The notes beneath the pieces were generated by a model, which saw only the letters and a program-made list of their open reading frames with translations, ran no database searches and was not told the origin of the DNA. From Cohaesibacter sp. (GTDB taxonomy: Bacteria; Pseudomonadota; Alphaproteobacteria; Rhizobiales; Cohaesibacteraceae), in assembly GCA_025800145.1 (NCBI GenBank), contig JAOXSH010000004.1:3726-67725 (forward strand): a DNA stretch of 64,000 nucleotides, given 5' to 3'. Shown here piece by piece: positions 14,218 through 33,970 of the stretch; position 1 is the first letter of the stretch, and the number at the start of each line of letters is the position of its first letter. Both the position numbers and the translations under genes were made by a program.

Positions 14218-14229
14218 ATTATCTCTCCC

Positions 14230-14628
14230 TTACAGAACGGAATAGGCAATGATCCAGACCAGTGCAGTCAGGATCAGGCCACCACCCAAAGTCAGGCGGG
14301 CCAGCCATTCGCGCTCTTGCTCGCCAAAGCCAAGACCAAAGTCCCAGATAAAGTGACGGAACCCACCCAGCATATGGTTAAGCAAGGCCCATGTGTAGCC
14401 AAACAAAACCAGACGCCCAATCCAGGAACCAAAAATAGCCTGCGCCGTGTCAAAGGCTTCCGGTCCGCTGGCAAGAGCAATCAGCCAATAGGCCAATAAG
14501 ACAGTTCCAAAATAGAGCGCAGCTCCAGTGATACGATGCACAATGGACATAGTCATCGTGAGCATCGGACGATAAATCTGTAGATGCGGAGAAAGAGGGC
14601 GCTTGCCCTTCAGGTCGACGTCTGTCAT
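14230..14628 (-). CDS. sdhC: Succinate dehydrogenase cytochrome b556
   Basis: RPLSPHLQIYRP, SIVHRITG, HMLGGFRHFIWD; start ATG 14628. Confidence 0.97.
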   Translation of the reverse strand: MTDVDLKGKRPLSPHLQIYRPMLTMTMSIVHRITGAALYFGTVLLAYWLIALASGPEAFDTAQAIFGSWIGRLVLFGYTWALLNHMLGGFRHFIWDFGLGFGEQEREWLARLTLGGGLILTALVWIIAYSVL

Positions 14629-14960
14629 TTCATTCGGTCCTCGACAGGTGACGCTTGCGTAAAGGTAACCATGGGTCAGGTTCGCATTTCCGTTTTCATA
14701 GCGACAAATTGGCCTAAGGTCAAAGCGAAAGCGGCACAAAATGTCACAAAAGCTACAAAATTCGCCTAAGGAACGAGGAGAAATATTACGTTACGTAAAA
14801 GCAATACACCATTTGTTCAAGGCAACAAAATCAACAAACCTCACCATAAGCAATGAGTGTAAATGAAGTGTGAGGCAAAAAGCAAAGCCCGACAAGCATT
14901 CTTTCGTCGCCGGGCCATCTCAAAGCAGATAGATAGAACCACAAAATGGCTCATAAGCAA

Positions 14961-16013
14961 TCAGGCGCGGGGCAGCAAAACCCAGAGATCCAAATCCAGA
15001 ATAACGGACGCATCATAGCCTTCTTCCCCCTTGCCCGGCAAAGCCTCACAAGGCTGATCCTTGGTGGCAAAGATACGAAGACGCAAAGCCCCGACATCCT
15101 CACGCCCCGGCAACTCGGCTTTGTCCAGCACCTGAGACCAGGCAAAAACCGTATCCCCTGCAAAAAGCGGTGCCACATGCCGCCCACCATTGATTGCAGC
15201 AATGTGAAAAGCATTGCCAAGACCATTAAAGGACAAAGCTCTGGCCAGAGAAATAACATGTCCGCCATAAATCAACCGCCGCCCAAAACGTCCTTGCCCT
15301 TCGGTAAATTGATTGAAATGCACTTTCGCCGTATTTTGATATAACCGCGTTGCCATCTGATGTTCGGCTTCTTCCACTGTCATACCATCCACATGATCAA
15401 TGCTTTCGCCTAATTCATAATCATCCCAAAAATGAACCGAGCCCGAGAGATCGGGATCAAAAGCCGCTTTTTTGATGATCGGAACCGCATCCCCAAGACT
15501 GTCAGCATCCAAAGCCGAAGGAAGGCTCGGCACAAGATTATGACCCGTTGACGTTGAGGCATCCTTCTTGCGCACCATCACCCAGCGCACATAGTCCAGC
15601 ACAGTCACCCCATGTTGATTAACACCGCTGGAGCGCACATAAACCACACCGGTTTTGCCATTGGAATTTTCTTTCAAACCAATCACTTCAGACGAAGCAG
15701 ACACACTGTCACCCGGATAAACCGGCGCTAGAAAACGGCATCCCGCATACCCCAGATTGGCAACAGCATTCAGAGAAATATCCGGCACCGTCTTGCCAAA
15801 GACAATATGAAAAACCAGCAAATCATCCAAAGGTGCCCGCTCATAGCCCAAATCTTGCGCAAAGGCATCTGAAGATTGCACCGCAAACCGTGAGCCATAT
15901 AACGCGGTATAAAGAGATGCATCGCCAACGCTGATTGTGCGCGGTGTCGCATGGCGGATCACCTGCCCAACGCTGAAATCTTCAAAATAATTGCCCGGAT
16001 TGGTCTTGCTCAT
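14961..16013 (-). CDS. mch: Double-MaoC dehydratase, mesaconyl-CoA hydratase-like
   Basis: MSKTNPGNYFEDF, FGKTVPDISLNAVANLGY, GLKENSNGKTGVV closely resemble Rhodobacter Mch as I recall it. Confidence 0.8.
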   Translation of the reverse strand: MSKTNPGNYFEDFSVGQVIRHATPRTISVGDASLYTALYGSRFAVQSSDAFAQDLGYERAPLDDLLVFHIVFGKTVPDISLNAVANLGYAGCRFLAPVYPGDSVSASSEVIGLKENSNGKTGVVYVRSSGVNQHGVTVLDYVRWVMVRKKDASTSTGHNLVPSLPSALDADSLGDAVPIIKKAAFDPDLSGSVHFWDDYELGESIDHVDGMTVEEAEHQMATRLYQNTAKVHFNQFTEGQGRFGRRLIYGGHVISLARALSFNGLGNAFHIAAINGGRHVAPLFAGDTVFAWSQVLDKAELPGREDVGALRLRIFATKDQPCEALPGKGEEGYDASVILDLDLWVLLPRA

Positions 16014-16036
16014 CCTAAACTCTCCCTCGGCCCGTC

Positions 16037-16062
16037 AAAAAGCCCCGATTAAGCGGGGCTTT
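16037..16062 (-). terminator. Terminator-like hairpin immediately upstream of mch
   Basis: Minus strand AAAGCCCCG-CTTAAT-CGGGGC-TTTTT, ending about 24 nt before the mch ATG. Confidence 0.45.
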
Positions 16063-16241
16063 GCAGCTCTCATACACAGCACCATATTGCAGCGCACAAG
16101 AAATGTCATCCAAACCAAAGAATGAGACGAAGACAGCAAAAGGAATAAGAAAGTCACTATCTTCTATCCATCCAGTCTTATCTTTGCCCAAAAGACAATG
16201 CTATAAGAGACAGAAAGTCTTTTCTATGCGAGTCGCCCCTC

Positions 16242-17492
16242 ATGCCCGTGGCCCTGTCATCCAAATCCGCCCATTTTCTCCTGTTTTCAGGTTGTCTTGC
16301 TGCTTCTTTGTCTCTGAGCGCTATATCAAGTTTGGCCGCAACCTTGGGGCCGCGGCCCTTTGCGTTGGTCGATCAATTGGAAGACGGGCCACTGAAAGAA
16401 AAATTGCAAGCCTGCGCGAAAGAGTTCGAAACGGGAAGACAGCTGAAAAAAACTCTCTTCTCCATCGCCCATCGTGGCGCGCCTTTGCAATTTCCCGAAC
16501 ATAGCAAAGAGGGATACAAAGCGGCGGCGCGCATGGGAGCAGGCATTGTCGAATGTGATGTGACCTTCACCAAAGACAAAGAGCTGGTCTGCCGCCATAG
16601 CCAGAATGATCTGGCCACAACCACCAATATTTTACAAACCGATTTGGCCGCCACCTGCGCCAAGCCTTTTCAAGCGGCCAGTGATGGACAAAAAGCCTCT
16701 GCCCAATGTCTGACATCCGATATCCTGTTATCCGAATTTAAGCATCTGACAGGCAAAATGGATGCCGCCAACAAACAGGCAAAAACTGTCGAAGATTTTC
16801 TTAACGGCACAGCCAATTGGCGCACCGATCTCTATGCCGCACAGGGCGGCACCTTGCTCAGCCATAAAGACAGCATTGCTCTTTTTAAAGAGTTAGGGGT
16901 TAAATTCACCCCGGAATTAAAAGCCCCGGTCGCCTCTATGCCATTTGATGGCATGAGCCAGCAAGATTATGCCCAAAAGCTGGTCGATGATTATAAAGAG
17001 GCGGACATCCCCCCATCCGATGTCTGGCTGCAAAGCTTCAACCTCAAAGATATCCAATATTGGATCGACAATGAGCCAGACTTTGGCAAACAGGCCATCT
17101 TTTTAGATGCGCGCTATCGCACCGGCGTCAATCCCCACAATCCCGACAGTTTCAGCCCAACCATGGCCCAGCTTAAGGAAATGGGCGTCAATTACATCGC
17201 CCCACCCCTTTGGATGCTGCTGGACAAACAGGGTGACAGCATCATCCCATCCAAATATGCAAAAGAGGCCAAAAAAGCAGGCCTGTCCATCATCACATGG
17301 ACAATAGAGCGATCAGGCCCACTGAACGAAGGCGGCGGCTGGTATTATCAAACCATCAAATCCTTGATCCAAAAAGACAGCGACATGCTCAAAGTCCTGC
17401 ATGTGCTGGCACAGGATGTCGGCGTCAAAGGCGTCTTTTCCGATTGGCCCGCCACCACCAGCTTTTATGCCAATTGCATGGGATTGGATTGA
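16242..17492 (+). CDS. Exported glycerophosphodiester phosphodiesterase
   Basis: Signal-like N-terminus; IAHRGA, IVECDV, LVCRH, TPELK, SDWP. Confidence 0.9.
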
Positions 17493-17531
17493 GAGGACTG
17501 CACTTCGTTAGCCCTCATATCCAGAGCGTGC

Positions 17532-17741
17532 TTAAAGCCCACCCAATTTGACATCCGGGCTATAGGCAAAATCAGGCCCGACCTCTTTGACAACCGCTTG
17601 CCCACAGCGCATTTTATTGGCGTCTGCATCAAAGGCATAAGTGGGGGAGCCATAGAGCTCCCATCCCTTAGACAAGGCCTCGCTCACCTTATGGCAAAAG
17701 GAAGCGTCATCATCTGCTGTGAGAAAACGATAAACCTGCAT
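17532..17741 (-). CDS. DUF1737-family small protein
   Basis: YRFLTADDDASFCHKVSEALSKGWELYGSP...CGQAVVK; starts 2 nt after the lyase stop. Confidence 0.85.
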   Translation of the reverse strand: MQVYRFLTADDDASFCHKVSEALSKGWELYGSPTYAFDADANKMRCGQAVVKEVGPDFAYSPDVKLGGL

Positions 17742-17743
17742 GA

Positions 17744-18631
17744 CTATTTCTCATCCTGTTTGGCAATCGCATTGGCAATATCCACCACCCGGCGGGCCAT
17801 ATCTGCATGCAAACGCTCCACCATTTTACCGTGAATGGTCATGACATTTTTAGACTGATTCTCCGGCGCATCAAACGCCTCAATAATTTCGCGACAGCGG
17901 GCAATTTCCTCCCCATCTGGCGAGAAAATCCGGTTGCAATCCTCAATCTGTTTCGGGTGAATGATGGTCTTGCCATCCATCCCCATTTCAGCGCCCTGCT
18001 CACATTCTGCAATGAAGCCCTGAGCATCGCTAAACTGGTTATAAACCCCATCAATGATGTCAATATCATAAGCCCGCGCCGCGGCCAAACACTGCATCAA
18101 CCATGGCATCATCGGCGCGCGAGCTGGCACCAGAGCGGCTCGCGTTTCCTTGGATAAGTCGTTGGTCCCCATAATGAAACAGGACAAGCGCGCCCCATGA
18201 TATTCCAATTTTGAGGAAGCAATTTCCAAGGCTCGCACCATTGCACCGGGCGTTTCCATCATCGCCCAGATTTTCAGATCCTGACCAATATGGGCATCAT
18301 TGAGCTTACGCCCAATGGCATAAACATCTTCAGCGCAATCGACTTTGGGAACCAGCACCGCATCAGGTTGCGCTTCAATCACTCCGGCCAGATCATCTTC
18401 TCCCCACGGGGTTTCCAGCCCATTCATGCGGATGACAACTTCACGATGCCCAAAGCCACCCTCGCGAACAGCCTCAACCACTTGCGCCCGTGCCATGTCT
18501 TTTTGGTCCGGTGCCACCGAATCTTCCAAATCCAGCAACAACACATCGACCGGCAGGGTCTTGGCTTTTTCCAGTGCACGAGCATTTGACCCGGGCATAT
18601 AAAGAGCGGTACGACGAGGACGGAAACTCAT
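17744..18631 (-). CDS. CitE/HpcH-family CoA-ester lyase, most like (3S)-malyl-CoA thioesterase Mcl2
   Basis: RRTALYMPGSNARALEKA, LDLEDSVA, WAMMET, MGTNDL, DGVYN, GKTIIHP. Confidence 0.85.
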   Translation of the reverse strand: MSFRPRRTALYMPGSNARALEKAKTLPVDVLLLDLEDSVAPDQKDMARAQVVEAVREGGFGHREVVIRMNGLETPWGEDDLAGVIEAQPDAVLVPKVDCAEDVYAIGRKLNDAHIGQDLKIWAMMETPGAMVRALEIASSKLEYHGARLSCFIMGTNDLSKETRAALVPARAPMMPWLMQCLAAARAYDIDIIDGVYNQFSDAQGFIAECEQGAEMGMDGKTIIHPKQIEDCNRIFSPDGEEIARCREIIEAFDAPENQSKNVMTIHGKMVERLHADMARRVVDIANAIAKQDEK

Positions 18632-19951: not shown

Positions 19952-20353
19952 ATGACAAAGACTTGCCGTTTCTGCCTCTCAAACAACCTTCTCGACGATG
20001 AGCCACTTTTTGAAAATGCCTCATTCTTTGTGCTCGGCATGAGAGAGCAGGCGCGACAACACGCGGTGATGATCATTCCCAAAAACCATGCTCAAACACC
20101 ATTTGATCTCAAAAGAGAAGATTGGTTAGGGATGGATGAGGCTTTAAGCTTTGCAAAACAAACGCTGGCGCCATTCAATCCTTGCGGCTATTCTATTGGC
20201 TGGAATGTCGGAGCCTCAGCCGGTCAACATATCAACCATGTGCATCTTCACGTCATATGCAGATTTGACGACCAGCCAGCAACAGGGTTAGGTCTCAATG
20301 CTCTCATTGAGCATGTAAACAATCCTCAAAACAAAGATCAGGCAGCCAAATGA
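19952..20353 (+). CDS. HIT family hydrolase
   Basis: N-terminal CRFC, IIPKNH, NVGASAGQHINHVHLHVI histidine triad. Confidence 0.9.
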   Translation: MTKTCRFCLSNNLLDDEPLFENASFFVLGMREQARQHAVMIIPKNHAQTPFDLKREDWLGMDEALSFAKQTLAPFNPCGYSIGWNVGASAGQHINHVHLHVICRFDDQPATGLGLNALIEHVNNPQNKDQAAK

Positions 20354-21297
20354 GCCAAGCCAGACAGCCAGCAAAAAACCAAAAACCAATCATTCTTGTC
20401 ATATCCAGCCATGTCTATGCTGGCTGCGTTGGCAATCGGGCCGCCGCGTTTGCGCTGGAGCGGATGGGTTATCAGGTTTGGGAAATCCCCACCATTTTGT
20501 TGCCATGGCATCCAGGTCACGGCCCCTCGACCCGCACCATCCCTGATGACAAAAACTTTGCACAAAGCCTGCAAGAGCTAACCACACATGCCGATTTTCC
20601 AAATGTCGCTGCTGTCCTTAGCGGTTATTTGGGCCAAACGTCCCAAGCCAAAGCCATTGCAGATCTGGTAACAGCGCTAAAAAAAGCCAATCCAAACACG
20701 CTCTATCTCTGCGATCCGGTTATGGGAGAGGAAAAAGGGCTCTATATTCATCAAGACACCGCTAGCGCCATACGCGATGCTCTCCTGCCGCTTTCCGATA
20801 TTGCAACACCCAATCGCTTCGAATTTGCATGGCTCACCCAATCCAAACCAGAACGCAATGAAGATATGATCGAGGCCAGCCAAACGTGGCCCGTGCCCCA
20901 GACCATCATCACCAGTGCCTTTCCCATGCTGCGCAATGCCATTGGCAATCTGCTTATCAGCAAGACAGACCCGTCAAATGATGCAACACAAGCAATATTA
21001 TGCGAACATCAGGCCTTGGCCAATCCGCCCAGTGGCACAGGAGATCTCTTTTCCGCGCTCTTTTTGGGGCATTTTTTAGCCACACAAAATGAAGAGCACA
21101 GTCTGAAACTGGCCTCCAGCGGGGTGTTTGAGATTGTAGCCCGCACATTGGCCATTGAAAGCAAAGACTTGCAATTGGTCGCTTTTCAGGACCGGTTCAT
21201 GGCTCCCATGGCCATGGTCAATCTGCGCAAAATAGGCAGCAAACCCAAACTATCAGCCTTTCGTAAAGGGCCCAAACGCGCCAAAAAACATGAATAA
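20350..21297 (+). CDS. pdxY: Pyridoxal kinase
   Basis: SSHVYAGCVGN, LSGYLG, CDPVMG, TPNRFE, GTGDLFSA; 4-nt overlap with the HIT gene. Confidence 0.88.
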   Translation: MSQARQPAKNQKPIILVISSHVYAGCVGNRAAAFALERMGYQVWEIPTILLPWHPGHGPSTRTIPDDKNFAQSLQELTTHADFPNVAAVLSGYLGQTSQAKAIADLVTALKKANPNTLYLCDPVMGEEKGLYIHQDTASAIRDALLPLSDIATPNRFEFAWLTQSKPERNEDMIEASQTWPVPQTIITSAFPMLRNAIGNLLISKTDPSNDATQAILCEHQALANPPSGTGDLFSALFLGHFLATQNEEHSLKLASSGVFEIVARTLAIESKDLQLVAFQDRFMAPMAMVNLRKIGSKPKLSAFRKGPKRAKKHE

Positions 21298-21334
21298 AGA
21301 CACATGTCAGACAAGACAGTGAACGGGGATTTTC

Positions 21335-22294
21335 ATGACAACACCTCCGAGCAAAAACGAAATTCAAAACGCCTATCAGCTCATCGAAAACCACATTCGC
21401 AAAACGCCAATTTTGCAGATTGATGGCACAGCATTTGAGCATGACACACCCGTCACCCTCAAATTGGAATTGCTGCAACATAGCGGATCATTCAAGGCAA
21501 GAGGCGCATTTTATAACCTGATATCACGCGATATCCCTGCCTCCGGTCTGGCCGCCGCCTCTGGCGGCAATCATGGTGCCGCCTGTGCCTATGCCGCCCA
21601 AAAACTTGGCATCAAGGCCCGCATTTTCGTGCCCGACATTGCCTCGCCGGCAAAGATAGACAAAATCAAAGCCTATGGTGCTTCTGCCATTGTCAAAGGC
21701 GAGCGCTATGCTGATTCTCTGGCTCTGTGCGATACCTATCAAAGAGATTCCGGGGCCATCGGCCTTCACGCTTATGATGGCTTTCACACCATTTGCGGAC
21801 AGGGAACCCTTGGCTATGAACTGTCCGAACAAATGAAAGACAACCTGCCCGATACCATATTGGTCGCAGTGGGCGGCGGCGGCCTCATTTCTGGTCTGGC
21901 AAGCTGGTTCGGCAAAAAGGTCAAAATTGTCGGGGTGGAACCACAAACATCATGCGCTATGCAACAGGCTCTCAAAGCAGGGGCCCCGATTGATGTTGAA
22001 GTATCCGGCATTGCCGCCGATTCTCTTGGTGCAAAACGGGTCGGTCAGATGGCCTTTTATATTGCCCAAAATGAGATCGACACCATCCTCACCCTATCCG
22101 ACAACGCCATTGCCAAAGCCCAAGCCACCTTATGGAATGACTATCATCTGGCCGCAGAGGCCGGGGGCGCTGCCGCCTTTGCCGCCCTGCAATCCGGCAC
22201 TTATAAGCCAAAACCGGGAGAAAAAGTCGCAATCATTCTGTGCGGATCCAATATAGAACTTGAAAAGCTGGCCGACATCACAAAATCTTCGTGA
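21335..22294 (+). CDS. PLP-dependent threonine/serine dehydratase family
   Basis: LQHSGSFKARGA (PLP Lys), SGGNHG, VGGGGL, no regulatory ACT domain. Confidence 0.9.
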   Translation: MTTPPSKNEIQNAYQLIENHIRKTPILQIDGTAFEHDTPVTLKLELLQHSGSFKARGAFYNLISRDIPASGLAAASGGNHGAACAYAAQKLGIKARIFVPDIASPAKIDKIKAYGASAIVKGERYADSLALCDTYQRDSGAIGLHAYDGFHTICGQGTLGYELSEQMKDNLPDTILVAVGGGGLISGLASWFGKKVKIVGVEPQTSCAMQQALKAGAPIDVEVSGIAADSLGAKRVGQMAFYIAQNEIDTILTLSDNAIAKAQATLWNDYHLAAEAGGAAAFAALQSGTYKPKPGEKVAIILCGSNIELEKLADITKSS

Positions 22295-22309
22295 ACTGTG
22301 TCTATACAA

Positions 22310-22345
22310 ATCCTGCCCCGTCCCCATCAACGAATGGGGCAGGAT
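22310..22345. terminator. Hairpin between convergent dehydratase and carbonic anhydrase genes
   Basis: ATCCTGCCCC...GGGGCAGGAT inverted repeat; weak U tracts. Confidence 0.5.
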
Positions 22346-22395
22346 GTAAGAACTCTATCTTAGTGCGCAATTTAAAAGAATTTTAAATCAGGCTC

Positions 22396-22869
22396 TTATG
22401 GCTGATAGGGCAAGGATGAATGATGCAGCACAATGCGCAACACCCCGTCAGCATTCTTCTTATAGCCAAAACTCTTATCGACCTGTGTGATAGTGCCATC
22501 CTTATCGGTCAGCTTGATCCAGCCCATCCACATACCAACATCGCCCTCGATAAATTCAGCCGCAGTGATGCTTTCCATGGCACGCCATCCCTTGAGACCA
22601 AAACCGGAATCCAATGGATAAGCCTCATCATGGCCAACAAAATAGGACAAAGCCCCCGTGCGGGTTGGGCGGAAGGTCTGATCACCACTGGCCAGCGTCG
22701 GCTTAAACAGAACCGGACCAAGATCATAGCCATAAGCCGCATCCAGAACCTGTTCGGCAACCGGGCGCGCCGCTTCAATATCACCTTCTTCATAAGCCTT
22801 GGAGATGGCAATCAGACCATCACCCCAAGCCTTGCGTGCCGCACTCAGCTCATCGGTGGAAATCGACAT
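22396..22869 (-). CDS. Iota-class carbonic anhydrase homolog (COG4337-type)
   Basis: AYGY..GPVLFKPTLA, GALSYFVG, DSGF.L.GW, VDKSFGY, C-terminal HHSSLPY; no signal peptide. Confidence 0.75.
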   Translation of the reverse strand: MSISTDELSAARKAWGDGLIAISKAYEEGDIEAARPVAEQVLDAAYGYDLGPVLFKPTLASGDQTFRPTRTGALSYFVGHDEAYPLDSGFGLKGWRAMESITAAEFIEGDVGMWMGWIKLTDKDGTITQVDKSFGYKKNADGVLRIVLHHSSLPYQP

Positions 22870-23000
22870 GCTCTTGTCCCTTTCAGTTGGTCACTTTGCA
22901 ACAGCTTATTTAGGCGCAACTTAGCTGTGAATCAAGAAGAGCCGGTCAAAAACCAACCTCTTCAAAAGGGGAAGCTTTTGATAGAAAAGATGATCAAACA

Positions 23001-23034
23001 AAAAAACCGGCCCATTTCAAAAAGGCCGGTTTTT
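23001..23034 (-). terminator. Intrinsic terminator of asd
   Basis: AAAAAACCGGCC...GGCCGGTTTTT with A/T tracts on both sides. Confidence 0.75.
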
Positions 23035-23057
23035 GATCATCATATCTGTCACTCACA

Positions 23058-24107
23058 TTAAGCAGCAACTTCGGCCCGTGGCTTGACCAGACCTTTATTG
23101 ATCAGGGTCTCGGCAATCTGCACGGTGTTCAGCGCAGCGCCTTTGCGCAAGTTATCAGAAACAACCCAGAGATTGAGGCCATTCTCAACGGTGGAATCTT
23201 CGCGGATACGAGAAATGTAAGTCGCATCTTCGCCAGCAGATTCAACAGGGGTGATATATCCCCCATCTTCGCGCTTGTCGACAACCAGACAACCCGGCGC
23301 TTCACGCAAAATATCACGCGCTTCATCAGCAGAGATCGGATTTTCAAATTCCAGATTCACCGCTTCAGAATGACCAACGAAAACAGGCACACGAACAGCA
23401 GTACAGCTCACCTTGATGGATGGATCGAGCATTTTCTTGGTCTCGGCAACAACTTTCCACTCTTCCTTGGTGGAACCGTCATCCATGAACACATCGATAT
23501 GCGGGATCACATTGAAAGCAATGCGCTTGGTGAATTTCTTCGGCTCGATCGGGTCAGACACAAAGACTGCCCGCGTCTGGGTGAACAACTCATCCATGGC
23601 TTCCTTGCCACCACCAGACACAGACTGATAGGTCGAAACAACAGCACGCTTGATCTTTGCTTTCTCATGCAATGGCTTTAAAGCCACCAAAAGCTGCGCG
23701 GTCGAGCAATTCGGGTTAGCGATAATATTGATGCGATCCTTTTTGGCAATCCACTCTTCCAAAGCCGCAGCATTGACCTCTGGCACAATCAAGGGAATGC
23801 GCTCGTCATAGCGCCATTGCGAGGAATTATCGATAACGATGCAGCCTTGCGCCGCAATCTTTGGAGACCATTCCTTGGACAAGGAGCCACCAGCCGACAT
23901 CAGGCAAAAGTCTGTGTCAGAAAAATCATAATGATCCAGAACCTGACATTTCAGCGTGGTGTCGCCAAAAGACACTTCCTTGCCTTTGGAACGCGAAGAG
24001 GCCAAAGCCACCACTTCATCTGCCGGAAAGCCGCGCTCGGACAGAATATCAAGCATCTCGCGCCCCACATTGCCAGTGGCACCGACGATTGCAATTTTAT
24101 AACCCAT
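23058..24107 (-). CDS. asd: Aspartate-semialdehyde dehydrogenase
   Basis: VGATGNVG, IDNSS, IANPNCST catalytic Cys, SDNLRKGAALN. Confidence 0.99.
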   Translation of the reverse strand: MGYKIAIVGATGNVGREMLDILSERGFPADEVVALASSRSKGKEVSFGDTTLKCQVLDHYDFSDTDFCLMSAGGSLSKEWSPKIAAQGCIVIDNSSQWRYDERIPLIVPEVNAAALEEWIAKKDRINIIANPNCSTAQLLVALKPLHEKAKIKRAVVSTYQSVSGGGKEAMDELFTQTRAVFVSDPIEPKKFTKRIAFNVIPHIDVFMDDGSTKEEWKVVAETKKMLDPSIKVSCTAVRVPVFVGHSEAVNLEFENPISADEARDILREAPGCLVVDKREDGGYITPVESAGEDATYISRIREDSTVENGLNLWVVSDNLRKGAALNTVQIAETLINKGLVKPRAEVAA

Positions 24108-24222
24108 AATAGATGATCTCCTGATCCCGGCTCCCCCAAAGTCTCCTGCCTTGCCAACATGGCACAGGCAGAATGGCTCCCCTCACATCCCCGGGGAGAG
24201 CCTGGCAGGGAGCGAGAGGCGC

Positions 24223-24273
24223 TTAAACCTTGGTAATAGTGGTAGTTGTGCGTTTGAGCAGGCCAGCAGTCAT
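24223..24273 (-). CDS. Putative Thr/Ile/Lys-rich attenuator leader peptide of asd (MTAGLLKRTTTTITKV)
   Basis: ATG ACT GCT GGC CTG CTC AAA CGC ACA ACT ACC ACT ATT ACC AAG GTT TAA; AGGGA 8 nt upstream of the ATG; ends 115 nt before the asd ATG. Confidence 0.75.
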   Translation of the reverse strand: MTAGLLKRTTTTITKV

Positions 24274-24512
24274 CACACCGGTCCCTGACGGAGCAGTGAT
24301 AAAATCTGCAAATATGACAAGGGAACCAATCATCCCAAACGCCCTTTTCAAACTCAGCCCGCTTCAAGGCGGACCCTCTCGGTTCAGATGTGCTTTTTGC
24401 CCAAGCCTTGCCCCCAAGTCAAGTAACAATCTGCCCGGCAATCCCCATTATACGAAAGAATGATACCAAAAAAGCAAAGACAGCAGAGCAAAAAGACGCT
24501 AAAAGACGTCTC

Positions 24513-24818
24513 ATGACCAAAGAGAGCAAACAAACACGCGAAGAACGAGAGGCTGCACGGCAAGCAGAAGCCATGCGCGCGCTTGAACGCGTGGAGCGTG
24601 AAAGTGAAACCATCGCCAATTCCAATTTTGCCCGCGCCAGCAACCGGCAAATCAATCATATGGAAGAAGCGCTGGATCGAACGCTCAAAAGGCTTGGGAC
24701 CGATGAAGATGGCAAATATGACCCGATAGAAGCTTGGGGGTCTGGCATTGGCCGCATAGGTGGTGCAATCTTTGCCATCATTCTTGTTATTTGGCTCATC
24801 AGCCATTTCACCAGATAA
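24513..24818 (+). CDS. Small protein with charged helical N-terminus and C-terminal membrane anchor
   Basis: MTKESKQTREERE...DPIEAWGSGIGRIGGAIFAIILVIWLISHFTR; divergent from asd. Confidence 0.65.
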   Translation: MTKESKQTREEREAARQAEAMRALERVERESETIANSNFARASNRQINHMEEALDRTLKRLGTDEDGKYDPIEAWGSGIGRIGGAIFAIILVIWLISHFTR

Positions 24819-24985
24819 CAAAATCCTTGGCTAATCCCCTCAACTGGTGTAGGGGATGGCAAGATAGCTGAAAAATGCCCTATGCCTTGATATTGCGCAT
24901 GATAAGCATTTTGCAAACGGCCTAAGATATAAAATTTCTCACACGCAACCCAAAACAAAGAGACGAACAAGAGAGACACACGATC

Positions 24986-25942
24986 ATGAGCGCGAAAATC
25001 TTTATCGATGGCGAAGTTGGCACGACCGGATTGCAGATCCGTGAGCGCCTGTCAGGCCGCAGCGATATCGAATTCTTGCGCCTTGGCGAAGACAAGCGCA
25101 AGGATCGCGATGCACGGGCAAAAATGCTCAATGAAGCAGACATTGCCATTCTCTGCCTGCCTGACGCTGCCTCTATTGAAGCTGTCACTCTGATCGAAAA
25201 TGACACCACCCGTGTCATTGACGCCTCCTCTGCCCACAGGGTGAGCGAAGGCTGGGTCTATGGCTTTGCGGAAATGACACCGGATCAACGCGAAAAAATC
25301 GCAAATGCCAAACGGGTCACCAATCCCGGCTGCTATCCGCAAGGCTATATCGCGCTGATGCGCCCACTTGTGGAAGCTGGCTTCATTCCGGCCAATTTCC
25401 CCGCAAGCGTGAATGCAATTTCTGGCTATAGTGGCGGCGGCAAAGCCATGATTGCGGACTATGAAGCAACCCAGAATGGCCTGCAAACACCCTATTGGCC
25501 CTATGGCCTGACATTGGCCCATAAACATGTGCCGGAAATGAAAACCTATGCCGGGTTGGATCATGCCCCCATTTTCCAACCAGCGGTTGGCCACTATGCT
25601 CAAGGCATGATCGATGCTGTGCCCGTCAATCTCTGGGCGCTCAACAAGAAACTGCATCTTCAAGACCTGCATGACTGCCTGTCACAGCGCTACCAGAACG
25701 AGTCCTTCGTGAAGGTAGCCCCGCTTCAAGCCGCAAGCAAACTGGACGCCATTACGCCAGAATATTTGAACGGCACCAACAGTATGCATTTGCACATCCA
25801 TGGCAATGATGAGAGCGGGCAAGCGCTCTTGCTGGCCGTGTATGACAATCTGGGCAAAGGGGCATCCGGCGCTGCCATACAGAATATGAATATCATGCTG
25901 GGACTGGATGAGACGACCAGTCTTCCTGTCGCGCCGCTCTAG
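24986..25942 (+). CDS. argC: N-acetyl-gamma-glutamyl-phosphate reductase (short type)
   Basis: [37 protein letters not shown]. Confidence 0.96.
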
Positions 25943-26019
25943 GCACATCCGGCATTCAATCAAAAGCCTGTTTGCCCCCATTGCAAACAGACAAGACGAC
26001 AATAAGGACCGAGCTGAAA

Positions 26020-26625
26020 ATGGATAAGTTCACAACGCTGACCGCAATTGCCGCGCCGATGCCTCTGATCAATATCGACACCGATATGATCATTCCGAAA
26101 CAATTTCTGAAAACCATCAAACGCACCGGCCTTGGTGCCAATGTGTTCCATGAAATGCGTTTCAATGAAGATGGCAGCGAAAATGCGGACTTTGTTCTCA
26201 ATCAGGACGCCTATCGCAAGGCAAAAATCATTGTCGCGGGTGACAATTTTGGCTGTGGCTCCTCCCGTGAACATGCCCCATGGGCTTTGCTTGATTTCGG
26301 CATCAAATGCATCATCTCCACCAGCTTTGCCGATATCTTTTATAACAACAGCTTCAAAAATGGTATTCTGCCAATCGTGGTCAATGAAGACGATCACAAA
26401 AAGCTGCTGGACGATGCCGCACGCGGTGCCAATGCAACCCTGACCATTGATCTGGAAAATCAAGTCATCAAAGGCCCAGATGGCGGCGAAATTGCCTTTG
26501 ACATTGACCCCTTCAAAAAGAAATGTCTGCTGGAAGGCCTCGATGATATCGGCCTGTCCATGCAGAAAATTGACAATGTCGCAAAATTCGAGACCAAAAT
26601 CTCTGACGAGCGTCCTTGGGTCTAG
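26020..26625 (+). CDS. leuD: 3-isopropylmalate dehydratase small subunit
   Basis: [37 protein letters not shown]. Confidence 0.98.
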
Positions 26626-26729
26626 AGCATATTTGTCGAAAAGTGTGTGCGGTTTTCGGACAAAAATATGCTTAGAAACAAAGACTAAAGCATTTTGAAT
26701 AACGACGTGTTTATTCAAAATGCTCTAAG
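26622..26729. repeat. CTAG-bounded double-hairpin interspersed repeat, copy 1
   Basis: CTAGAGCATATTTGTCGAAAAG..TTTTCGGACAAAAATATGCT..CTAAAGCATTTTGAATAA..TTATTCAAAATGCTCTAAG; near-identical to 33749-33853. Confidence 0.9.
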
Positions 26730-26773
26730 TCATTGCAAAGCGGGCAATCTGCTGCAATCAGATACGATCTCAT

Positions 26774-26801
26774 AAAACCAGACCCACGGGTCTGGTTTTT
26801 T
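26774..26801 (+). terminator. Intrinsic terminator after leuD
   Basis: AAAACCAGACCC-AC-GGGTCTGGTTTTTT. Confidence 0.8.
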
Positions 26802-26956
26802 ATTGCCCAATAGTCCCAAAGTGCGTCACAAATCTGCAAAGCGCTTGCACCTTGGCGCAATATTGATTAATCGAAACCCAACCATTTCTTTCTTTCCAAT
26901 CCTTGCAGCCAAACATGGCCGGCAAGCATGATTGCTACCCAAACTGGAACGAGATT

Positions 26957-28066
26957 ATGACAAGCAAGCTTTTCCTCCTGCCCGGCGACGGCATCGGCCC
27001 TGAAATCATGAATGAAGTGAAAAAGATCATCGAGTGGATGAATGCCAATCTCGAGGCTGTTTCCTTTGAAACTGAAGAAGGTCTGGTAGGCGGCTCTGCT
27101 TATGATGCCCATGGCTCTGCAATCTGCGAAGAGGATATGGCAAAGGCAATGGCCGCAGATGCCGTTCTGTTTGGAGCGGTTGGCGGCCCAAAATGGGCAG
27201 ATGTGCCTTACGAAGTGCGCCCCGAAGCTGGCCTGTTGCGTCTACGTAAAGATCTGGGACTGTTTGCCAATTTGCGCCCTGCTCTGTGCTATCCGGCACT
27301 GGCTGATGCCTCTTCGCTCAAAAAAGAACTGGTCGAAGGCCTTGATATCCTGATCGTACGCGAGCTGACCGGCGGCGTTTATTTTGGCGAACCAAAGGAA
27401 ATCACCGATCTGCCTGACGGACAAAAGCGCGCCGTTGATACCCAGCTCTATACCACATCCGAGATTGAGCGCATTTGCCGCGTGGCCTTTGATTTGGCCA
27501 AAACCCGATCCAATCGCGTGGCCTCTTCCGAGAAGCATAATGTGATGAAATCCGGCGTTTTGTGGAAAGAAGTCGCAACCCGTATTGGTGCACAAGAATA
27601 TCCAGACACACCGTTGGAACATGTACTGGCCGATAATTGCGCCATGCAGCTGGTTCGCAATCCAAAGCAATATGACGTCATTGTCTGTGACAACCTGTTT
27701 GGCGATATCCTCTCAGATGTTGCAGCCATGTTGACCGGCTCTCTTGGTATGTTGCCATCCGCCTCCCTTGGCGCACCAGATGCAGCAAGCGGCAAACGCA
27801 AAGCCCTCTATGAGCCCGTTCATGGCTCCGCGCCTGACATTGCTGGCAGTGGCGCTGCTAACCCCATTGCCATGGTTGCTTCTTTTGGTATGGCCCTGCG
27901 CTATTCTTTCGGCCTGATCAAAGAAGCAGAAATGGTCGATGCCGCTATCTCCAACGTCTTGGACAAAGGCCTGCGCACCCGCGACATTGCAACACAAGAT
28001 GCCAACATCGTCACCACCTCAGAGATGGGCGATGCCATTATCACCGAGTTGAAAGCTCTGGCATAA
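26957..28066 (+). CDS. leuB: 3-isopropylmalate dehydrogenase
   Basis: [40 protein letters not shown]. Confidence 0.98.
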
Positions 28067-28925: not shown

Positions 28926-31900
28926 ATGACTTTGGATCTTGATAGTGATCACAAAAAGCATATTGCAAACGCACAAAAGCTGATTGAAAAAGCTGACCCC
29001 CTCCATCAAAATTATTTAAAACATTTGTTTTATCAATCAGATAAAGAAGATCTGGCACGCTATAGTCCAGCCGAATTGGCGCATGTGGCTTCCCTGTCCA
29101 TGGATACATTTGCCAAAAGCTTTGATGGAAAGCACAAGATCCATATCTCTGATCCAACCTTTAAAGACGATGCTGACGCCCTGCTCAATCAGGTCACCAT
29201 CATTGAGCTACACAATGCCAACAAGCCATTCCTCGTTGATTCGGTTATGGGGGTTTTGCAAAATGCCGGCTATGACATCCATCTGGTTTTGCATCCAGTC
29301 ATCACCACAGAGCGCGACGACAAACAGGCCCTGATCGCCCTGCATGACAGAAATGAAGCCCAGACCAACCCAAAATTGCGTCGCGAAAGCCTCATCCATG
29401 TCCATATTTCGCGTTTGGCTGACAAAAAAGCGAAAACAGAACTGCATCAGGCTCTGGATGCAATCCTCAGTGATGTCAGCGCGGTGGTCGAAGATTGGAA
29501 GGCCATGTTGTTGCGCCTTGAAGAAACCATTGCCATCTTCAAAATCACCCCACCGCCTTTGCCACAAGACGATATTGATGAGACCGTCGAATTTCTGCGC
29601 TGGTTGGTCAATAACAATTTCACCCTTTTGGGCATGCGCGAATATGCCATCAATGCCGATTCGGACGAAGGCGAATTGGCCAGAACCGACCGTCCTGGCC
29701 TTGGGGTATTGCGCAACCCAGAAGTCCGCGTCCTGCGCCGTGGTAGTGAATTGGTGACCATGACACCAGAGATCAAAGAATTTCTAATGCGCCCGGAACC
29801 TCTGATCATCACCAAAACCAATGTGAAAACCGGGGTCCATCGCCGGGCTTATATGGATTATATCGGCATCAAACTCTATGACGACCATGGCACCCTAACC
29901 GGCGAATTGCGCATTGTCGGCCTCTTCACCTCCACCACCTATAACCGCTCCGCCACCCATATTCCATTCCTGCGCCGCAAAGTCTCGCAAACATTGGACA
30001 AAGCAGCGGTCGATCCTTCCGGCCATTCAGGCAAGGCCTTGCTCAATGTTTTGGAAGGCTATCCCCGCGATGAGCTATTCCAGATTGATCAGGACACATT
30101 GCTCACCTTCAGTCAGGAAATTCTGCGCCTGCATGAGCGCCCGCGCATTCGCGTTCTCTCCCGCGTGGACAAATTTGACCGCTTCGTCTCGGTGCTGGTC
30201 TTTGTCCCGCGTGATCGCTACAACACCTCAATTCGCCTCAAAATCGGTGATTTCCTAAAAGACGCCTATGATGGCCGCCTCTCCGCCGTTTATCCCGACT
30301 TTCCCGACGGTCCTTTGGCACGGGTGCATTTCATCATTGGCCGCTCCACTGGCAAAACCCCGACCCCAACCCGCATCGAGCTGGAAGAAAGTATCCAGAA
30401 AATTGTGCGCACATGGTCGGATGGGTTGGCAGAAGCGGTCCGAGAAACCTGTTCTCTGGCCAAAGCCGGCCAATTGATCAATCTCTATTGCGATGCTTTC
30501 TCAGACGCCTATCGCGATACATTCGAACCGGAAATCGCGGTCAAAGACATCCGCATCATGGAAAGCATGATAGGCGATGTCGACACAGCCATTCAACTCT
30601 ATCGCAAGCAGGAAGATCCCAAACATCGCATTGCCCTGAAAATCTTCCATTCCCATACCCCCATTCCCTTGTCAGAGCGCGTGCCAATTCTAGAAAATAT
30701 GGGCTTTCGCGTCATTGACGAGCGCTCTTATGACATCAAGCCCGTAAACAGCGACAAACTGTTCTGGATGCATGATATGGAGCTGGAGCGCGCTGACGGT
30801 CAGGATATCGACACGACAGAAGTACAAGAAAATCTTCAGGCCTGTTTCCTTGCCATCTGGCATGGCGAAGCAGAGAATGACGGCTATAATACACTGGTCT
30901 TGAACGCCAATTTGCCATGGCGCGACATCACAATCCTGCGAACCATTTCGCGCTATCTGCGTCAGGTCCGCATCCCCTATTCTCAGGATTATATGTGGGG
31001 TACCCTCAACAGCTATCCTGATTTGTCAGCCCTGATTGTCGATCTGTTCCATACCCGTTTCAACCCCGATCAAAAGAACCGCGTCGCAGAGGCAACCCGT
31101 CTGACCGGTGGCATTGACACCGCTCTGGAAGCAGTCGCCAATCTCGATCATGACCGCATCATGCGCCGTTTTGTCGATGTCATTCAGGCAACCTTGCGCA
31201 CCAACTTCTATCAACTGAGCGAACAAAAGACAGCCAAACCAACTCTGGCTCTCAAACTCAATCCACGCACTATGGAAGAGATGCCCGAACCAAAGCCATT
31301 TCGCGAAATCTTTGTCTATAGCCCACGGGTCGAAGGCCTGCATTTGCGCTTTGGCAAAGTTGCGCGCGGCGGCTTGCGCTGGTCCGACCGCCCACAGGAT
31401 TTCCGCACCGAAGTGCTGGGTCTGGTAAAAGCACAGCAAGTCAAAAATGCCGTGATCGTGCCCGTTGGCTCAAAAGGGGGATTTGTTCCCAAACAATTGC
31501 CAACATCTGGCGATCGCGAAGCCTTCATGGCTGAAGGCATTGCCTCCTATAAATTGTTCATTTCCTCTTTGCTCGATGTCACCGACAATCTGGAAGGCCA
31601 GAAAATTCTGCCACCAACCAAGGTCATCCGTCATGATGAAGATGACCCTTATCTGGTTGTCGCCGCCGACAAAGGCACCGCCACTTTCTCTGACATTGCC
31701 AATGGCATTTCAGAAGGTAAGGAATTTTGGTTGGGCGATGCGTTCGCCTCTGGCGGATCAGCCGGTTACGACCACAAGAAAATGGGCATCACCGCCCGCG
31801 GCGGCTGGGAAGCGGTCAAACGCCATTTCCGCGAAATGGACCGCGATATCCAGACAGAGCCTTTCACCACTATCGGCGTAGGCGATATGTCCGGCGATGT

Positions 31901-33752
31901 CTTTGGCAATGGTATGCTTCTGTCAAAGGCAACCAAACTGATTGCCGCCTTCGATCACCGCGATATCTTCATTGATCCCGATCCAGATCCCGCATCAAGC
32001 TGGCAAGAACGCAAGCGCGTCTTTGATCTGGGCCGCTCCTCATGGCGCGATTATAACGAAAAGCTGATCTCCAAAGGCGGTGGCATTTTCTCCCGTGGCG
32101 AAAAATCCATCACCCTGTCCAAAGAAGCACAAACAGCAATTGGGCTGGATCAGGACAAAGCCACCCCGAACGAGATCATGCAGGCCGTCCTCAAAGCACC
32201 GGTTGATTTGCTCTGGTTCGGCGGCATTGGCACCTATTTGCGCGCATCGACCGAGACCAACGCCGATGCCGATGATCGCGCCAATGATGCAATTCGCATC
32301 ACACCGCAAGAGCTGCGCGTCAAGGTGATTGGCGAAGGCGCCAATCTCGGTGTCACCCAAAAAGCCCGCATTGAATTTAACGAGCTGGGCGGTCGCTGTA
32401 ATTCCGATGCCATCGACAATTCAGCAGGCGTTAACAGCTCCGATATGGAAGTCAATATCAAGATTGCCCTTGGTGCAGCCGTGCGCACTGGCAAACTGGA
32501 TATCGAAGCCCGCAATGATTTGCTGGCCTCCATGACAGACAATGTGGCCGATCTGGTCTTGCGAAACAATTATCTGCAAACCTTGTCCATCTCGCTCACC
32601 CAGTTGCGCGGTATGGAAGATTTTGGTTATCAGAAACGCCTCATGGAGCTGCTCGAAGATATGGGCGAACTGGACCGCGAGGTGGAATTCCTTCCAGACA
32701 ATGAAAAACTGGCAGAACATGCCAAAAAGGCCCAGCCGCTTTCTCGTGCCGAAATCGGCGTGTTGCTGGCCTATGCCAAAAACACCCTCTATGATGAATT
32801 GCTGGAAAGCTCCATTCCTGATGAAGATTATATGGATCAGGAACTGGTGCGTTACTTCCCCGATGACATGCAAAAAACCTATGCATTGGAAATTTCCGAG
32901 CATCGCCTGCGTCGGGAAATCATCACAACCGGCATCACCAATTCCATGATCAACCGCGGCGGAGCCACGCTCATTCCGCGCATCAAGGACAAAACCGGGG
33001 CCAGCTCTGCCGATATTGCAAGAGCCTTCATTGCCGTGCGCGACAGTTTCGGTATGCGCACGCTCAATGATGCGATTGATGCATTGGACAATAAAGTCTC
33101 AGGCGACACCCAGCTCTCGCTCTATGCCGAGGTGCAAAAGCTGCTCTTGTCACAAATTCTGTGGTTCATGCGCAATGTCCCCTCAGACATGAGCATTGCC
33201 GATGCCGTCAAACATTATGGTGCAGGCATTGCCAAGGTGACCAAGGAACTGGACAGCCATTTGCCCCCTTATCTGGCCACCAAACTGGAGCGCGAAACCA
33301 AGCGCTTCCTTGATGCTGGCGTGCCAAAAGATCTGGCCAGCCGCATTGCTCATTTGTCGCTGATCTCCCGCATTCCAGATATCATTCTGGTCTCGGACAG
33401 CACAGGCAAATCCTTGTCCAAATCAGCCGCAGCCTATTTCGCTGTTGCCGGTCATTTCAAAATTGGCCGCATCGACGCGCTGGCTTTGGCGCTAGATGTC
33501 TCCGATTATTATGATGCATTGGCGCTCGACCGCGTAAGGGACAATCTGTCTGAAGCCCATAACCAGATGACCGCCAATGTATTGGATCTGGCAACGGCAA
33601 AGAAAGAAGGTCTGGATATCTGGCTTGAACAAAAAGGCGAAGCGATTGAACGCACCATCAAAGCGGTCAATGCCATCATTGATGATGACGATCTAAGCGT
33701 TTCCAAATTTGCTGTGGCAACAGGCATGTTGTCTGATTTGTCAAACAGCTAG
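28926..33752 (+). CDS. Large NAD-specific glutamate dehydrogenase
   Basis: 1608 aa; RGGLRWSDR, KNAVIVPVGSKGGF, VAADKGTATFSD, GEGANLG, DAIDNSAGV. Confidence 0.97.
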   Translation: MTLDLDSDHKKHIANAQKLIEKADPLHQNYLKHLFYQSDKEDLARYSPAELAHVASLSMDTFAKSFDGKHKIHISDPTFKDDADALLNQVTIIELHNANKPFLVDSVMGVLQNAGYDIHLVLHPVITTERDDKQALIALHDRNEAQTNPKLRRESLIHVHISRLADKKAKTELHQALDAILSDVSAVVEDWKAMLLRLEETIAIFKITPPPLPQDDIDETVEFLRWLVNNNFTLLGMREYAINADSDEGELARTDRPGLGVLRNPEVRVLRRGSELVTMTPEIKEFLMRPEPLIITKTNVKTGVHRRAYMDYIGIKLYDDHGTLTGELRIVGLFTSTTYNRSATHIPFLRRKVSQTLDKAAVDPSGHSGKALLNVLEGYPRDELFQIDQDTLLTFSQEILRLHERPRIRVLSRVDKFDRFVSVLVFVPRDRYNTSIRLKIGDFLKDAYDGRLSAVYPDFPDGPLARVHFIIGRSTGKTPTPTRIELEESIQKIVRTWSDGLAEAVRETCSLAKAGQLINLYCDAFSDAYRDTFEPEIAVKDIRIMESMIGDVDTAIQLYRKQEDPKHRIALKIFHSHTPIPLSERVPILENMGFRVIDERSYDIKPVNSDKLFWMHDMELERADGQDIDTTEVQENLQACFLAIWHGEAENDGYNTLVLNANLPWRDITILRTISRYLRQVRIPYSQDYMWGTLNSYPDLSALIVDLFHTRFNPDQKNRVAEATRLTGGIDTALEAVANLDHDRIMRRFVDVIQATLRTNFYQLSEQKTAKPTLALKLNPRTMEEMPEPKPFREIFVYSPRVEGLHLRFGKVARGGLRWSDRPQDFRTEVLGLVKAQQVKNAVIVPVGSKGGFVPKQLPTSGDREAFMAEGIASYKLFISSLLDVTDNLEGQKILPPTKVIRHDEDDPYLVVAADKGTATFSDIANGISEGKEFWLGDAFASGGSAGYDHKKMGITARGGWEAVKRHFREMDRDIQTEPFTTIGVGDMSGDVFGNGMLLSKATKLIAAFDHRDIFIDPDPDPASSWQERKRVFDLGRSSWRDYNEKLISKGGGIFSRGEKSITLSKEAQTAIGLDQDKATPNEIMQAVLKAPVDLLWFGGIGTYLRASTETNADADDRANDAIRITPQELRVKVIGEGANLGVTQKARIEFNELGGRCNSDAIDNSAGVNSSDMEVNIKIALGAAVRTGKLDIEARNDLLASMTDNVADLVLRNNYLQTLSISLTQLRGMEDFGYQKRLMELLEDMGELDREVEFLPDNEKLAEHAKKAQPLSRAEIGVLLAYAKNTLYDELLESSIPDEDYMDQELVRYFPDDMQKTYALEISEHRLRREIITTGITNSMINRGGATLIPRIKDKTGASSADIARAFIAVRDSFGMRTLNDAIDALDNKVSGDTQLSLYAEVQKLLLSQILWFMRNVPSDMSIADAVKHYGAGIAKVTKELDSHLPPYLATKLERETKRFLDAGVPKDLASRIAHLSLISRIPDIILVSDSTGKSLSKSAAAYFAVAGHFKIGRIDALALALDVSDYYDALALDRVRDNLSEAHNQMTANVLDLATAKKEGLDIWLEQKGEAIERTIKAVNAIIDDDDLSVSKFAVATGMLSDLSNS

Positions 33753-33853: not shown

Positions 33854-33875
33854 CATCGGAAAATATCAGCAAAAA

Positions 33876-33930: not shown

Positions 33931-33970
33931 GCATTTTGAGTACCTATGAGCCTTGGCATAAAATCAAAAG

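Follow-up and report, generated by a model that had tools for sequence, protein, structure and literature searches.

In the E. coli tnaC-rut-tnaA system and in the Salmonella mgtL-mgtA and corA leaders, transcription termination is Rho-dependent, and the position of a ribosome or an alternative stem-loop decides whether the Rho site is exposed. The leader of asd described here resembles tna/mgtA-type leaders in that C-rich RNA follows the leader open reading frame (ORF) and an intrinsic terminator is lacking, the part played by Rho being putative in the asd leader. The tna attenuator is also cited in a study of actinobacterial leaders (Seliverstov et al. 2005, PMC1262725), where a pseudoknot and an alternative hairpin were predicted for the LEU element and Rho was proposed for the Cys leaders; these leaders share with the asd leader a leader peptide with regulatory codons and the absence of a terminator. 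Classical attenuators, such as those of E. coli thrL/thr (RF00506), the trp, his, and leu leaders, and S. meliloti trpL/rnTrpL (PMC6614838), have in common with it a short leader ORF carrying a run of end-product codons and, as is proposed for asd, the selection of mutually exclusive helices by ribosome position, a ribosome at the stop codon masking the first of the competing strands. A structured RNA upstream of asd is already known from Lactobacillales (the asd RNA motif, RF01732).

The control of asd in alphaproteobacteria is essentially undescribed. The S. meliloti small ORF SEP5, which is the counterpart of the leader ORF considered here, is translated according to Ribo-seq and Western blot data (Hadjeras et al. 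2023, PMC10117765); the authors proposed a possible leader-peptide role for it and described its conservation as confined to Sinorhizobium, and their report contains neither an RNA structure nor a mechanism. Outside Vitreschak et al. (2004), our literature search for an asd leader or attenuator in alphaproteobacteria found only this remark on SEP5 and no description of the downstream switch. Screens for premature terminators themselves state that they are blind to leaders that have no terminator (PMC2965389). To judge from this search, in which SEP5 was the only related report, the set of helices located 3′ of the Thr/Lys leader and common to many Rhizobium-like bacteria has not yet been described. 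Here, we analyze it in a 64,000-nt stretch of Cohaesibacter sp. DNA (GenBank assembly GCA_025800145.1, contig JAOXSH010000004.1, positions 3,726 to 67,725), hereafter the window, and in related loci.

Results

The asd locus of the window and its leader ORF

In the window, asd is located on the minus strand at 23058 to 24107, with its AUG at 24107. The 349-aa product was identified as aspartate-semialdehyde dehydrogenase by NF011456 (503 bits) and TIGR01296 (444 bits), both scores being above the cut-offs. Asd is a branch-point enzyme that provides the sole entry to the synthesis of Lys, Thr, Met, and diaminopimelate. The Shine-Dalgarno (SD) sequence of asd, CAGGAG (24118 to 24123, minus strand), lies 10 nt 5′ of the AUG. 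Farther upstream on the same strand, at 24223 to 24273, there is a leader ORF of 16 codons encoding MTAGLLKRTTTTITKV, whose AUG occupies 24273-24271 and whose TAA stop codon occupies 24225-24223; an SD-like AGGGA is found at 24286-24282, 8 nt 5′ of this AUG. The regulatory codons of the ORF extend over 24229 to 24255 (minus strand) and comprise Lys AAA (24255-24253), the Thr/Ile run ACA ACU ACC ACU AUU ACC (24249-24232), and Lys AAG (24231-24229). Regulatory codons clustered in a short ORF, as in classical attenuators, are thus present.

The genes argC (24986-25942), leuD (25972-26625), and leuB (26903-28066), all on the plus strand, are divergent from asd in the part of the window that was annotated (20350-28066). 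On the other side of asd are genes for a protein resembling metal-independent carbonic anhydrases with a score below the family cut-off (22396-22869, minus strand), a Ser/Thr dehydratase (21335-22294, plus strand), and pyridoxal kinase (20350-21297, plus strand). The region 5′ of the asd leader contains a terminator-like hairpin on the minus strand (24512-24493) and a sigma-70–like CTTGAC at 24423-24418 as a candidate part of the asd promoter, for which a convincing −10 element was not found. This region is overlapped on the opposite strand by a 142-aa ORF (24390-24818, plus strand) with a hydrophobic C terminus; no NCBIfam match was obtained for it, and with a start at an internal Met, its product would begin with MTKESKQTREEREAARQ. 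The window comes from a coral-associated bacterium, and metatranscriptome contigs from coral span 24183-24437 of it at a coverage of only 2-6x, which is uninformative on 3′ ends.

Three helices compete between the leader ORF and asd

All segments between the leader stop codon and asd are described on the minus strand. The pyrimidine-rich segment s1, CCUCUCGCUCCCUG (24206 to 24219), starts 4 nt past the leader stop and pairs over 14 bp with 24193-24179. It includes CUCCCUG (24212-24206), which a preliminary description of this DNA had placed correctly, although the spacing from the TAA is 10 nt and not 11 nt as given there. The next segment, A (GGCUCUCCCC, 24193 to 24202), is a pyrimidine strand that toggles between two partners. 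The proximal partner, B (CGGGGAUGUGAGGGGAGCC, 24175 to 24193), uses 24193-24179 for pairing with s1 and 24182-24175 (GGGGAGCC) for pairing with A, and the two uses overlap. B is followed by the hairpin H2 (24144 to 24173, 13 bp), whose base is formed by UUCUGCCU (24173-24166) and AGGCAGGA (24151-24144) and whose cap is UGCCA-UGU-UGGCA. H2 is a spacer hairpin with a sequence that differs among relatives and an energy of −18.2 kcal/mol when folded alone. The distal partner of A, C (GGGGGAGCC, 24129 to 24137), is separated at its 3′ end from the SD by 5 nt and from the AUG by 21 nt.

The two possibilities for A had been recognized in the preliminary description, which noted that GGCUCUCCCC at 24202-24193 can pair with either of two copies of GGGGAGCC (24182-24175 and 24136-24129); both copies were found at these positions of the minus strand. 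The UGCCA/UGGCA hairpin that it reported is also present, with UGCCA at 24164-24160 and UGGCA at 24156-24152. Pairing of CUCCCUG with GGCAGGAG (24150-24143), another of its proposals, is not supported, GGCAGGAG being the 3′ strand of H2.

Three competing helices result from this arrangement: s1:B and A:B share B, while A:B and A:C share A. In the minimum-free-energy fold of the window, s1 is paired with CGGGGA.GUGAGGGG (24193-24179) and A is left in a loop. Explicit energies in the window were −39.6 kcal/mol for s1:B with H2, −34.5 kcal/mol for A:C with H2, and −32.1 kcal/mol for A:B with H2. Other near-isoenergetic combinations, for example, s1:C with A:B or an A:C helix extended onto the CAGG of the SD, were also obtained in equilibrium folds of the window. 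In folding of the growing transcript, a mask over 15 nt counted from the stop codon, which imitates a terminating ribosome, caused A:B to form first; with the ORF alone masked, to imitate a ribosome stalled upstream, s1:B formed first. In the window, combining the helices s1:B (13-14 bp) and A:C (9 bp) gives an arrangement with loops of 3 nt and 41 nt, the longer of which holds H2.

The leader ORF is widespread in Hyphomicrobiales

The window and 80 Hyphomicrobiales loci made up a set of 81 asd loci. A leader ORF ending in Thr/Lys codons was found 5′ of asd in 60 of the 81, at a distance of 78-150 nt, mostly 105-115 nt. Some further loci, among them L030 and L041, seem on visual inspection to carry a weaker form of the leader; within the same set, the leader was absent from the loci of Xanthobacteraceae-like and Pseudolabrys-like genomes and from some others. 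Compared to the SEP5 report, the ORF and the downstream switch are here seen to be spread across Hyphomicrobiales. In the last 12 codons of the 50 distinct leader tails, Thr accounts for 40% and Lys for 20%. The Lys codons of the leader tails are AAA in 79% of cases (97 AAA and 26 AAG), whereas the asd genes at these loci use AAA for 11% (147 AAA and 1202 AAG), a bias that points to the choice of a rare codon for sensitivity or to the avoidance of G in this stretch.

The Asd protein of the window is at most 82% identical to those of the genome representatives, the nearest of which is Roseibium; two metagenome contigs are nearer (97 and 86% identity). The leaders of metagenome contigs L201 (482-603) and L202 (481-603) are the closest relatives of the window leader. 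In L201, the Ile of the codon run is replaced by Thr (KRTTTTTTKV followed by the stop), and the UGCCA/UGGCA stem carries a compensatory change from A-U to G-C. In L202, the sequence of H2 is unrelated to that of the window, and s1:B, A:B, and A:C are retained.

Strand A co-varies with two partners

Contiguous helices of 5-11 bp for A:B and of 5-12 bp for A:C were found in all 60 leaders. Among the 37 leaders with distinct A cores, the A:C helix score was at least 7 in 81%, compared to 13% when the partner region was shuffled; for A:B, the corresponding values were 46 and 13%. To compare cognate and noncognate partners, the contiguous-helix score of each A with its own partner region was set against its scores with the partner regions of others in 29 representatives with less than 55% mutual identity. 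Cognate partners scored higher than permuted ones for A:C (7.52 versus 6.60±0.20; 0 of 20,000 permutations at least as good), A:B (6.67 versus 6.10±0.16; 8 of 20,000), and s1:B (6.52 versus 6.02±0.21; 285 of 20,000, and 0 of 3000 permuted partners as good as the cognate one in another permutation set), while s1:C was at the permuted level (6.29 versus 6.27±0.20; 9042 of 20,000); these figures are inflated by relatedness, but their direction is clear. The search for covariation in relatives, a check named in the preliminary description, thus came out in favor of its central proposal of competing hairpins: A:B and A:C are nearly isoenergetic (the difference between forced A:B and forced A:C is 1.8±4.5 kcal/mol over the 60 leaders), are kept in the 60 relatives, and co-vary with A. 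RNAduplex on 48-nt windows produced long gappy duplexes (−36.3 for cognate versus −34.5 for noncognate pairs) and was replaced by the contiguous-helix scoring.

The covariation can be followed in individual variants of the A core. CUCUUCC is matched by GGAAGAG at both B and C (L020 and L045), CUCUCGC by GCGGGAG and GCGAGAG (L046), UCCCGCCG by CGGCGGGA (L076), and CGAUCUCUCC by GGAGAGAUCG (L009). Among the window, L201, and L202, 97.6% of the cells of s1:B and 96% of those of A:C are paired, with changes that are only one-sided and pair-keeping; H2 has three pairs altered on both sides, and relatives beyond these have a hairpin of unrelated sequence at the H2 position. The A:B helix of L202 persists as CGCUUCCC:GGGGAGCG, shifted by one column, and column-wise scoring counted it as unpaired. 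Since the purine and pyrimidine strands slip and B and C occur in shifted registers, column-wise covariation across clades is unmeasurable in MAFFT alignments.

The positions of the strands relative to the leader stop are also kept. In 50 of the 60 leaders, at least 3 nt of B are common to the strands that pair with s1 and with A. The start of s1 is located at a median of +3 past the leader stop (interquartile range of +2 to +7; 60 leaders), and that of A at +20 to +22. A ribosome at a stop codon shields ~9-12 nt beyond the stop. By this measure, s1 lies within the reach of a terminating ribosome and A lies outside it. Across the family, 4-40 nt separate the 3′ end of C from the AUG, the distance being mostly 14-28 nt. 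In the Rhizobiaceae leaders, only ~3 nt are common to A:B and A:C, and AGAGAGC next to the SD is a possible partner for the 5′ half of A; a translational component is therefore possible in this lineage. Overall, the helices are mutually exclusive, as in attenuators, and their geometry suggests that the choice between them depends on ribosome position. We consider it highly probable that helix competition controlled by the leader peptide takes place upstream of asd.

One group of leaders departs from this layout. In Roseiarcus-like metagenome-assembled genomes (L036, L039, L040, L048, L049, L054, L061, and L064), the leader, ~100-170 nt before asd, continues for ~9 codons beyond the Thr run (KTRRPLKGGT.G and the stop). 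The extra codons encode a hairpin, CCCGC-UGAAAG-GCGGG, within the ORF, making these leaders a sub-type with an added element. Their s1 helix starts at +11 to +13 past the stop instead of +2 to +4, that is, at the edge of the footprint of a terminating ribosome.

The asd SD has no conserved partner in the leader

The switch could act on translation, with one conformer hindering the 30S subunit at the asd SD or standby site, either by occlusion or through an abutting A:C helix, and with RNA loss as a secondary effect of polarity or decay. The preliminary description had included SD occlusion among its read-outs and proposed that CUCCCUG pairs with the CAGGAG that contains the SD. Some of the folds are compatible with such an action. 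The best fold of the window obtained with a ribosome placed on the leader stop codon extends A:C, CCUGCC pairing to the GG..CAGG of the SD, and the minimum-free-energy fold of Rhizobiaceae closes GCUCUCU:AGAGAGC 6-9 nt before the AUG. At its most frequent distances from the AUG, the end of C is within the region contacted by the 30S subunit. The SD was also slightly less accessible when A:C was forced (0.45) than when A:B was forced (0.49), with differences of more than 0.05 in 30 leaders compared to 13 in the opposite direction.

The comparison across leaders argues against this reading. For the 20 nt that precede the AUG, no conserved complementary strand was detected: s1 scored 4.77 versus 4.71 for permuted partners, A scored 4.14 versus 3.96, and B and the leader ORF behaved likewise, so that s1, A, and the leader ORF are no better matched to this stretch than permuted partners are. 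The SD region matches permuted coding sequences better (5.76) than its own (5.38), suggesting that it is kept open; nor was conserved pairing found between the initial 90 nt of asd and any of C, the SD, s1, and A, or between the leader ORF and the SD. The accessibility of the initiation region is equal in the two conformers (0.50 with A:B forced and 0.49 with A:C forced), and the small effect on the SD has the wrong sign if A:C belongs to the starvation fold.

Folding with ribosome footprints masked had been proposed in the preliminary description to decide whether a single structure dominates and whether the SD responds. Over the 60 leaders, forced A:B and forced A:C were near-equal in energy; as to the second point, the masks caused no consistent shift in the accessibility of either the SD or the initiation region. 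The G of CUCCCUG is moreover lost in L201, which has CUCCCUU. Given this change and the null results of the permutation and accessibility analyses, pairing of CUCCCUG with the SD is a trait of the window sequence and is not conserved. Conformer-dependent sequestration of the SD or start codon was thus not observed beyond lineage-specific partial pairing in the window and Rhizobiaceae, the case for SD occlusion is weakened, and we regard a switch acting directly on translation as unlikely.

Leader RNA is abundant relative to asd in some Rhizobium libraries

The 81 nt around the leader stop contain 39% C and 23% G, with a median C/G ratio of 1.78 (2.0 in the window); it falls to 1.0 within the asd coding region and to 0.67 over the remainder of the leader. 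Such a C-rich, G-poor region would fit a Rho loading site, but the composition is in part a consequence of the ACN Thr codons and the pyrimidine strands, which could account for it in the absence of Rho.

At the RNA level, assembled RNA-seq contigs (unitigs) from Rhizobium strains were placed on L085, the orthologous locus of Rhizobium ruizarguesonis, and compared by their mean depths, a poor measure. Leader RNA exceeded the asd body 3-40 fold in some Rhizobium runs and not in others, with depth steps at structure boundaries, values that come from a genus other than that of the window, from long unitigs that average several genes, and from libraries some of which may hold DNA. In run X28, the depth was ~30,000-38,000 over the leader ORF, ~7,200 over the structured part, and 817 in the asd-containing unitig. 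Run X29 contained a fragment that begins at the leader stop, ends shortly before C1, and has a depth of 6,000-18,000, compared to 636 upstream and 888 downstream. Steps of 3-4 fold were located 45-110 nt inside asd in X36 and X37, and X30 and X38 showed no step. In the poly(A)-tailed small-RNA library X35, no 3′ end was found inside the leader. The unitig depths are suggestive only; they would fit transcripts that, depending on conditions, end prematurely or are processed, with no intrinsic stop at a fixed site, and they would equally fit a nuclease-resistant leader fragment.

On the minus strand of L085 (4700-4900), the leader RNA species have a 5′ end at ~4898 and further boundaries at 4800-4812, where the leader stop and s1 are located, at 4728, ahead of C1, and at 4707, past C2 and 9 nt short of the asd AUG. 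They give a strong signal in X28, X29, and X31 and none in X30 and X38. They may represent products of attenuation, stable fragments left by decay, or an sRNA similar to rnTrpL; the X29 fragment looks like a stable decay product rather than a termination product.

The region could instead be a static, stable 5′-untranslated fold, serving as an mRNA stabilizer, pause element, or processing signal, with the leader ORF acting alone, for example, through a stalled ribosome that blocks Rho or RNase, or regulating nothing. The X29 fragment, very abundant and extending from approximately the leader stop to just before C1, resembles a nuclease-resistant structured core. The low-complexity pyrimidine and purine strands can pair in many registers, and the z-score of the window fold is only −2.26. 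However, a static fold needs one partner for A, while A keeps two near-equal, co-varying partners in 60 leaders, and the third competitor, s1, is positioned precisely under the footprint of a terminating ribosome. A static fold is therefore quite improbable.

The leader lacks an intrinsic terminator and matches no known RNA family

The preliminary description stated that no U-tract follows any stem, and this proved to hold for the whole family. The consensus scan of the window found no terminator-like site from the leader to asd, and UUUU is absent between the leader stop and the AUG in 53 of the 60 leaders; the GC-rich hairpin and U-tract of classical attenuators are thus lacking. Loose terminator-like matches were obtained in 3 of the 60 leaders, one of which spans the leader stop, while the other two have their U’s inside the H2 stem. 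The family has a single U-rich stretch 3′ of a stem, UUUUCUCC, which follows H2 in the Mesorhizobium-like loci L026 and L028, ~45 nt before asd. Its U’s pair with AACC at the base of H2, so that it is probably not a terminator. Searches for the Rfam Thr_leader (RF00506) and other leader families gave no relevant match in the window at E values up to 10 or in six relatives at E values up to 1.

One might also consider a riboswitch, an operator recognized by a regulatory protein or an sRNA, or another RNA that binds a metabolite or protein and merely adjoins the leader ORF, since the fold is compact and may contain a pseudoknot (s1:B crossing A:C), like some small riboswitches. Conservation is confined to the helical strands, with loops and junctions varying in sequence and length, so that no conserved unpaired pocket was found; together with the lack of an Rfam match and the duplicated partner segments, which suit a switch and not a ligand pocket, this makes a binding RNA very improbable. 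A classical intrinsic attenuator of the kind known from E. coli thr, trp, and his, with an antiterminator that alternates with a U-tract–bearing 3:4 terminator hairpin, would account for the codon run of the leader ORF and for mutually exclusive helices set by ribosome position, but it is already contradicted by the terminator scans (none of the three consensus matches is at the end of a terminating stem), the Rfam result, and the small-RNA library, and is barely credible.

A model for ribosome-controlled read-out at the RNA level

Since neither a hairpin with a U-tract nor conserved pairing of the SD was found, the most likely read-out is factor-dependent termination (by Rho) or a related RNA-level event near the boundary of the leader and asd. 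Our best reading is a switch set by the ribosome and read at the RNA level, with Rho as the probable factor, and not by direct SD occlusion. Rho-dependent termination, the other read-out named in the preliminary description, is plausible on indirect support, as is another form of attenuation at the RNA level. We assign a probability of roughly 45% to the complete chain, that is, a ribosome-sensed Thr/Lys attenuator of asd that includes a Rho-type read-out at the RNA level. The ORF, the three helices with their conservation and geometry, and the lack of a terminator are observed; the assignment of folds to amino acid states, the pseudoknot, and the involvement of Rho are inferred.

When both Thr and Lys are ample, the ribosome would reach the stop codon and cover s1 as B is being transcribed, allowing the local A:B hairpin to form. 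Once the ribosome is released, the C-rich end of the ORF and s1 would be naked, Rho (or an RNase) would act, and expression would be low. When charged Thr-tRNA or Lys-tRNA is scarce, the ribosome would stall in the codon run; s1 would remain free and capture B, and A would move to C. The resulting starvation fold would be similar to an H-type pseudoknot, with the C-rich strands all paired or covered by the ribosome, and transcription would proceed.

In its most specific form, the model would describe a Hyphomicrobiales-wide attenuator that responds jointly to Thr and Lys by toggling between the A:B hairpin and an H-type pseudoknot (s1:B crossing A:C), thereby exposing or hiding a Rho loading site. 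We put this form forward tentatively and consider it rather doubtful as a whole. If true, it would represent an amino acid biosynthetic leader-peptide attenuator that operates through Rho and a pseudoknot and not through an intrinsic terminator. Abundant released leader RNA might, in addition, act in trans, like rnTrpL.

Discussion

The asd leader constitutes a family that is currently missing from Rfam. If the model of a ribosome-controlled switch holds, leader-peptide attenuation operates in a large, agriculturally important order, which includes rhizobia, Agrobacterium, and marine and coral associates, in a form that is invisible to terminator-based searches. A multivalent sensor of Thr and Lys would then join the known attenuators, and the leader would provide a highly conserved, well-defined test case for Rho-dependent or pseudoknot-based attenuation.

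The asd leader can be distinguished from each of the systems that it resembles. The asd RNA motif of Lactobacillales (RF01732) has no leader ORF, comes from another phylum, and was not matched in the Rfam scan; the two RNAs are unrelated. The actinobacterial LEU element and Cys leaders differ from the asd leader in phylum, genes, and sequences. In the LEU element, moreover, the base stem pairs Leu codons with the SD, while the asd leader has no strand, the codon run included, with conserved complementarity to the SD. The tna/mgtA-type leaders have no counterpart of the duplicated purine partners B and C, and the signals to which they respond are free Trp, Pro, or Mg2+, while the signal proposed for the asd leader is uncharged Thr- or Lys-tRNA and the controlled gene is biosynthetic. 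Compared to classical attenuators, the asd leader lacks a terminator hairpin with a U-tract and a match in Rfam. The classical thr leader controls thrABC, while the asd leader would control asd and appears to sense Thr and Lys together. The wiring differs as well: in classical attenuators it is linear (1:2, 2:3, and 3:4), while in the asd leader the pairings are s1:B, A:B, and A:C, and since A is flanked by s1 and B, one of the states is pseudoknot-like.
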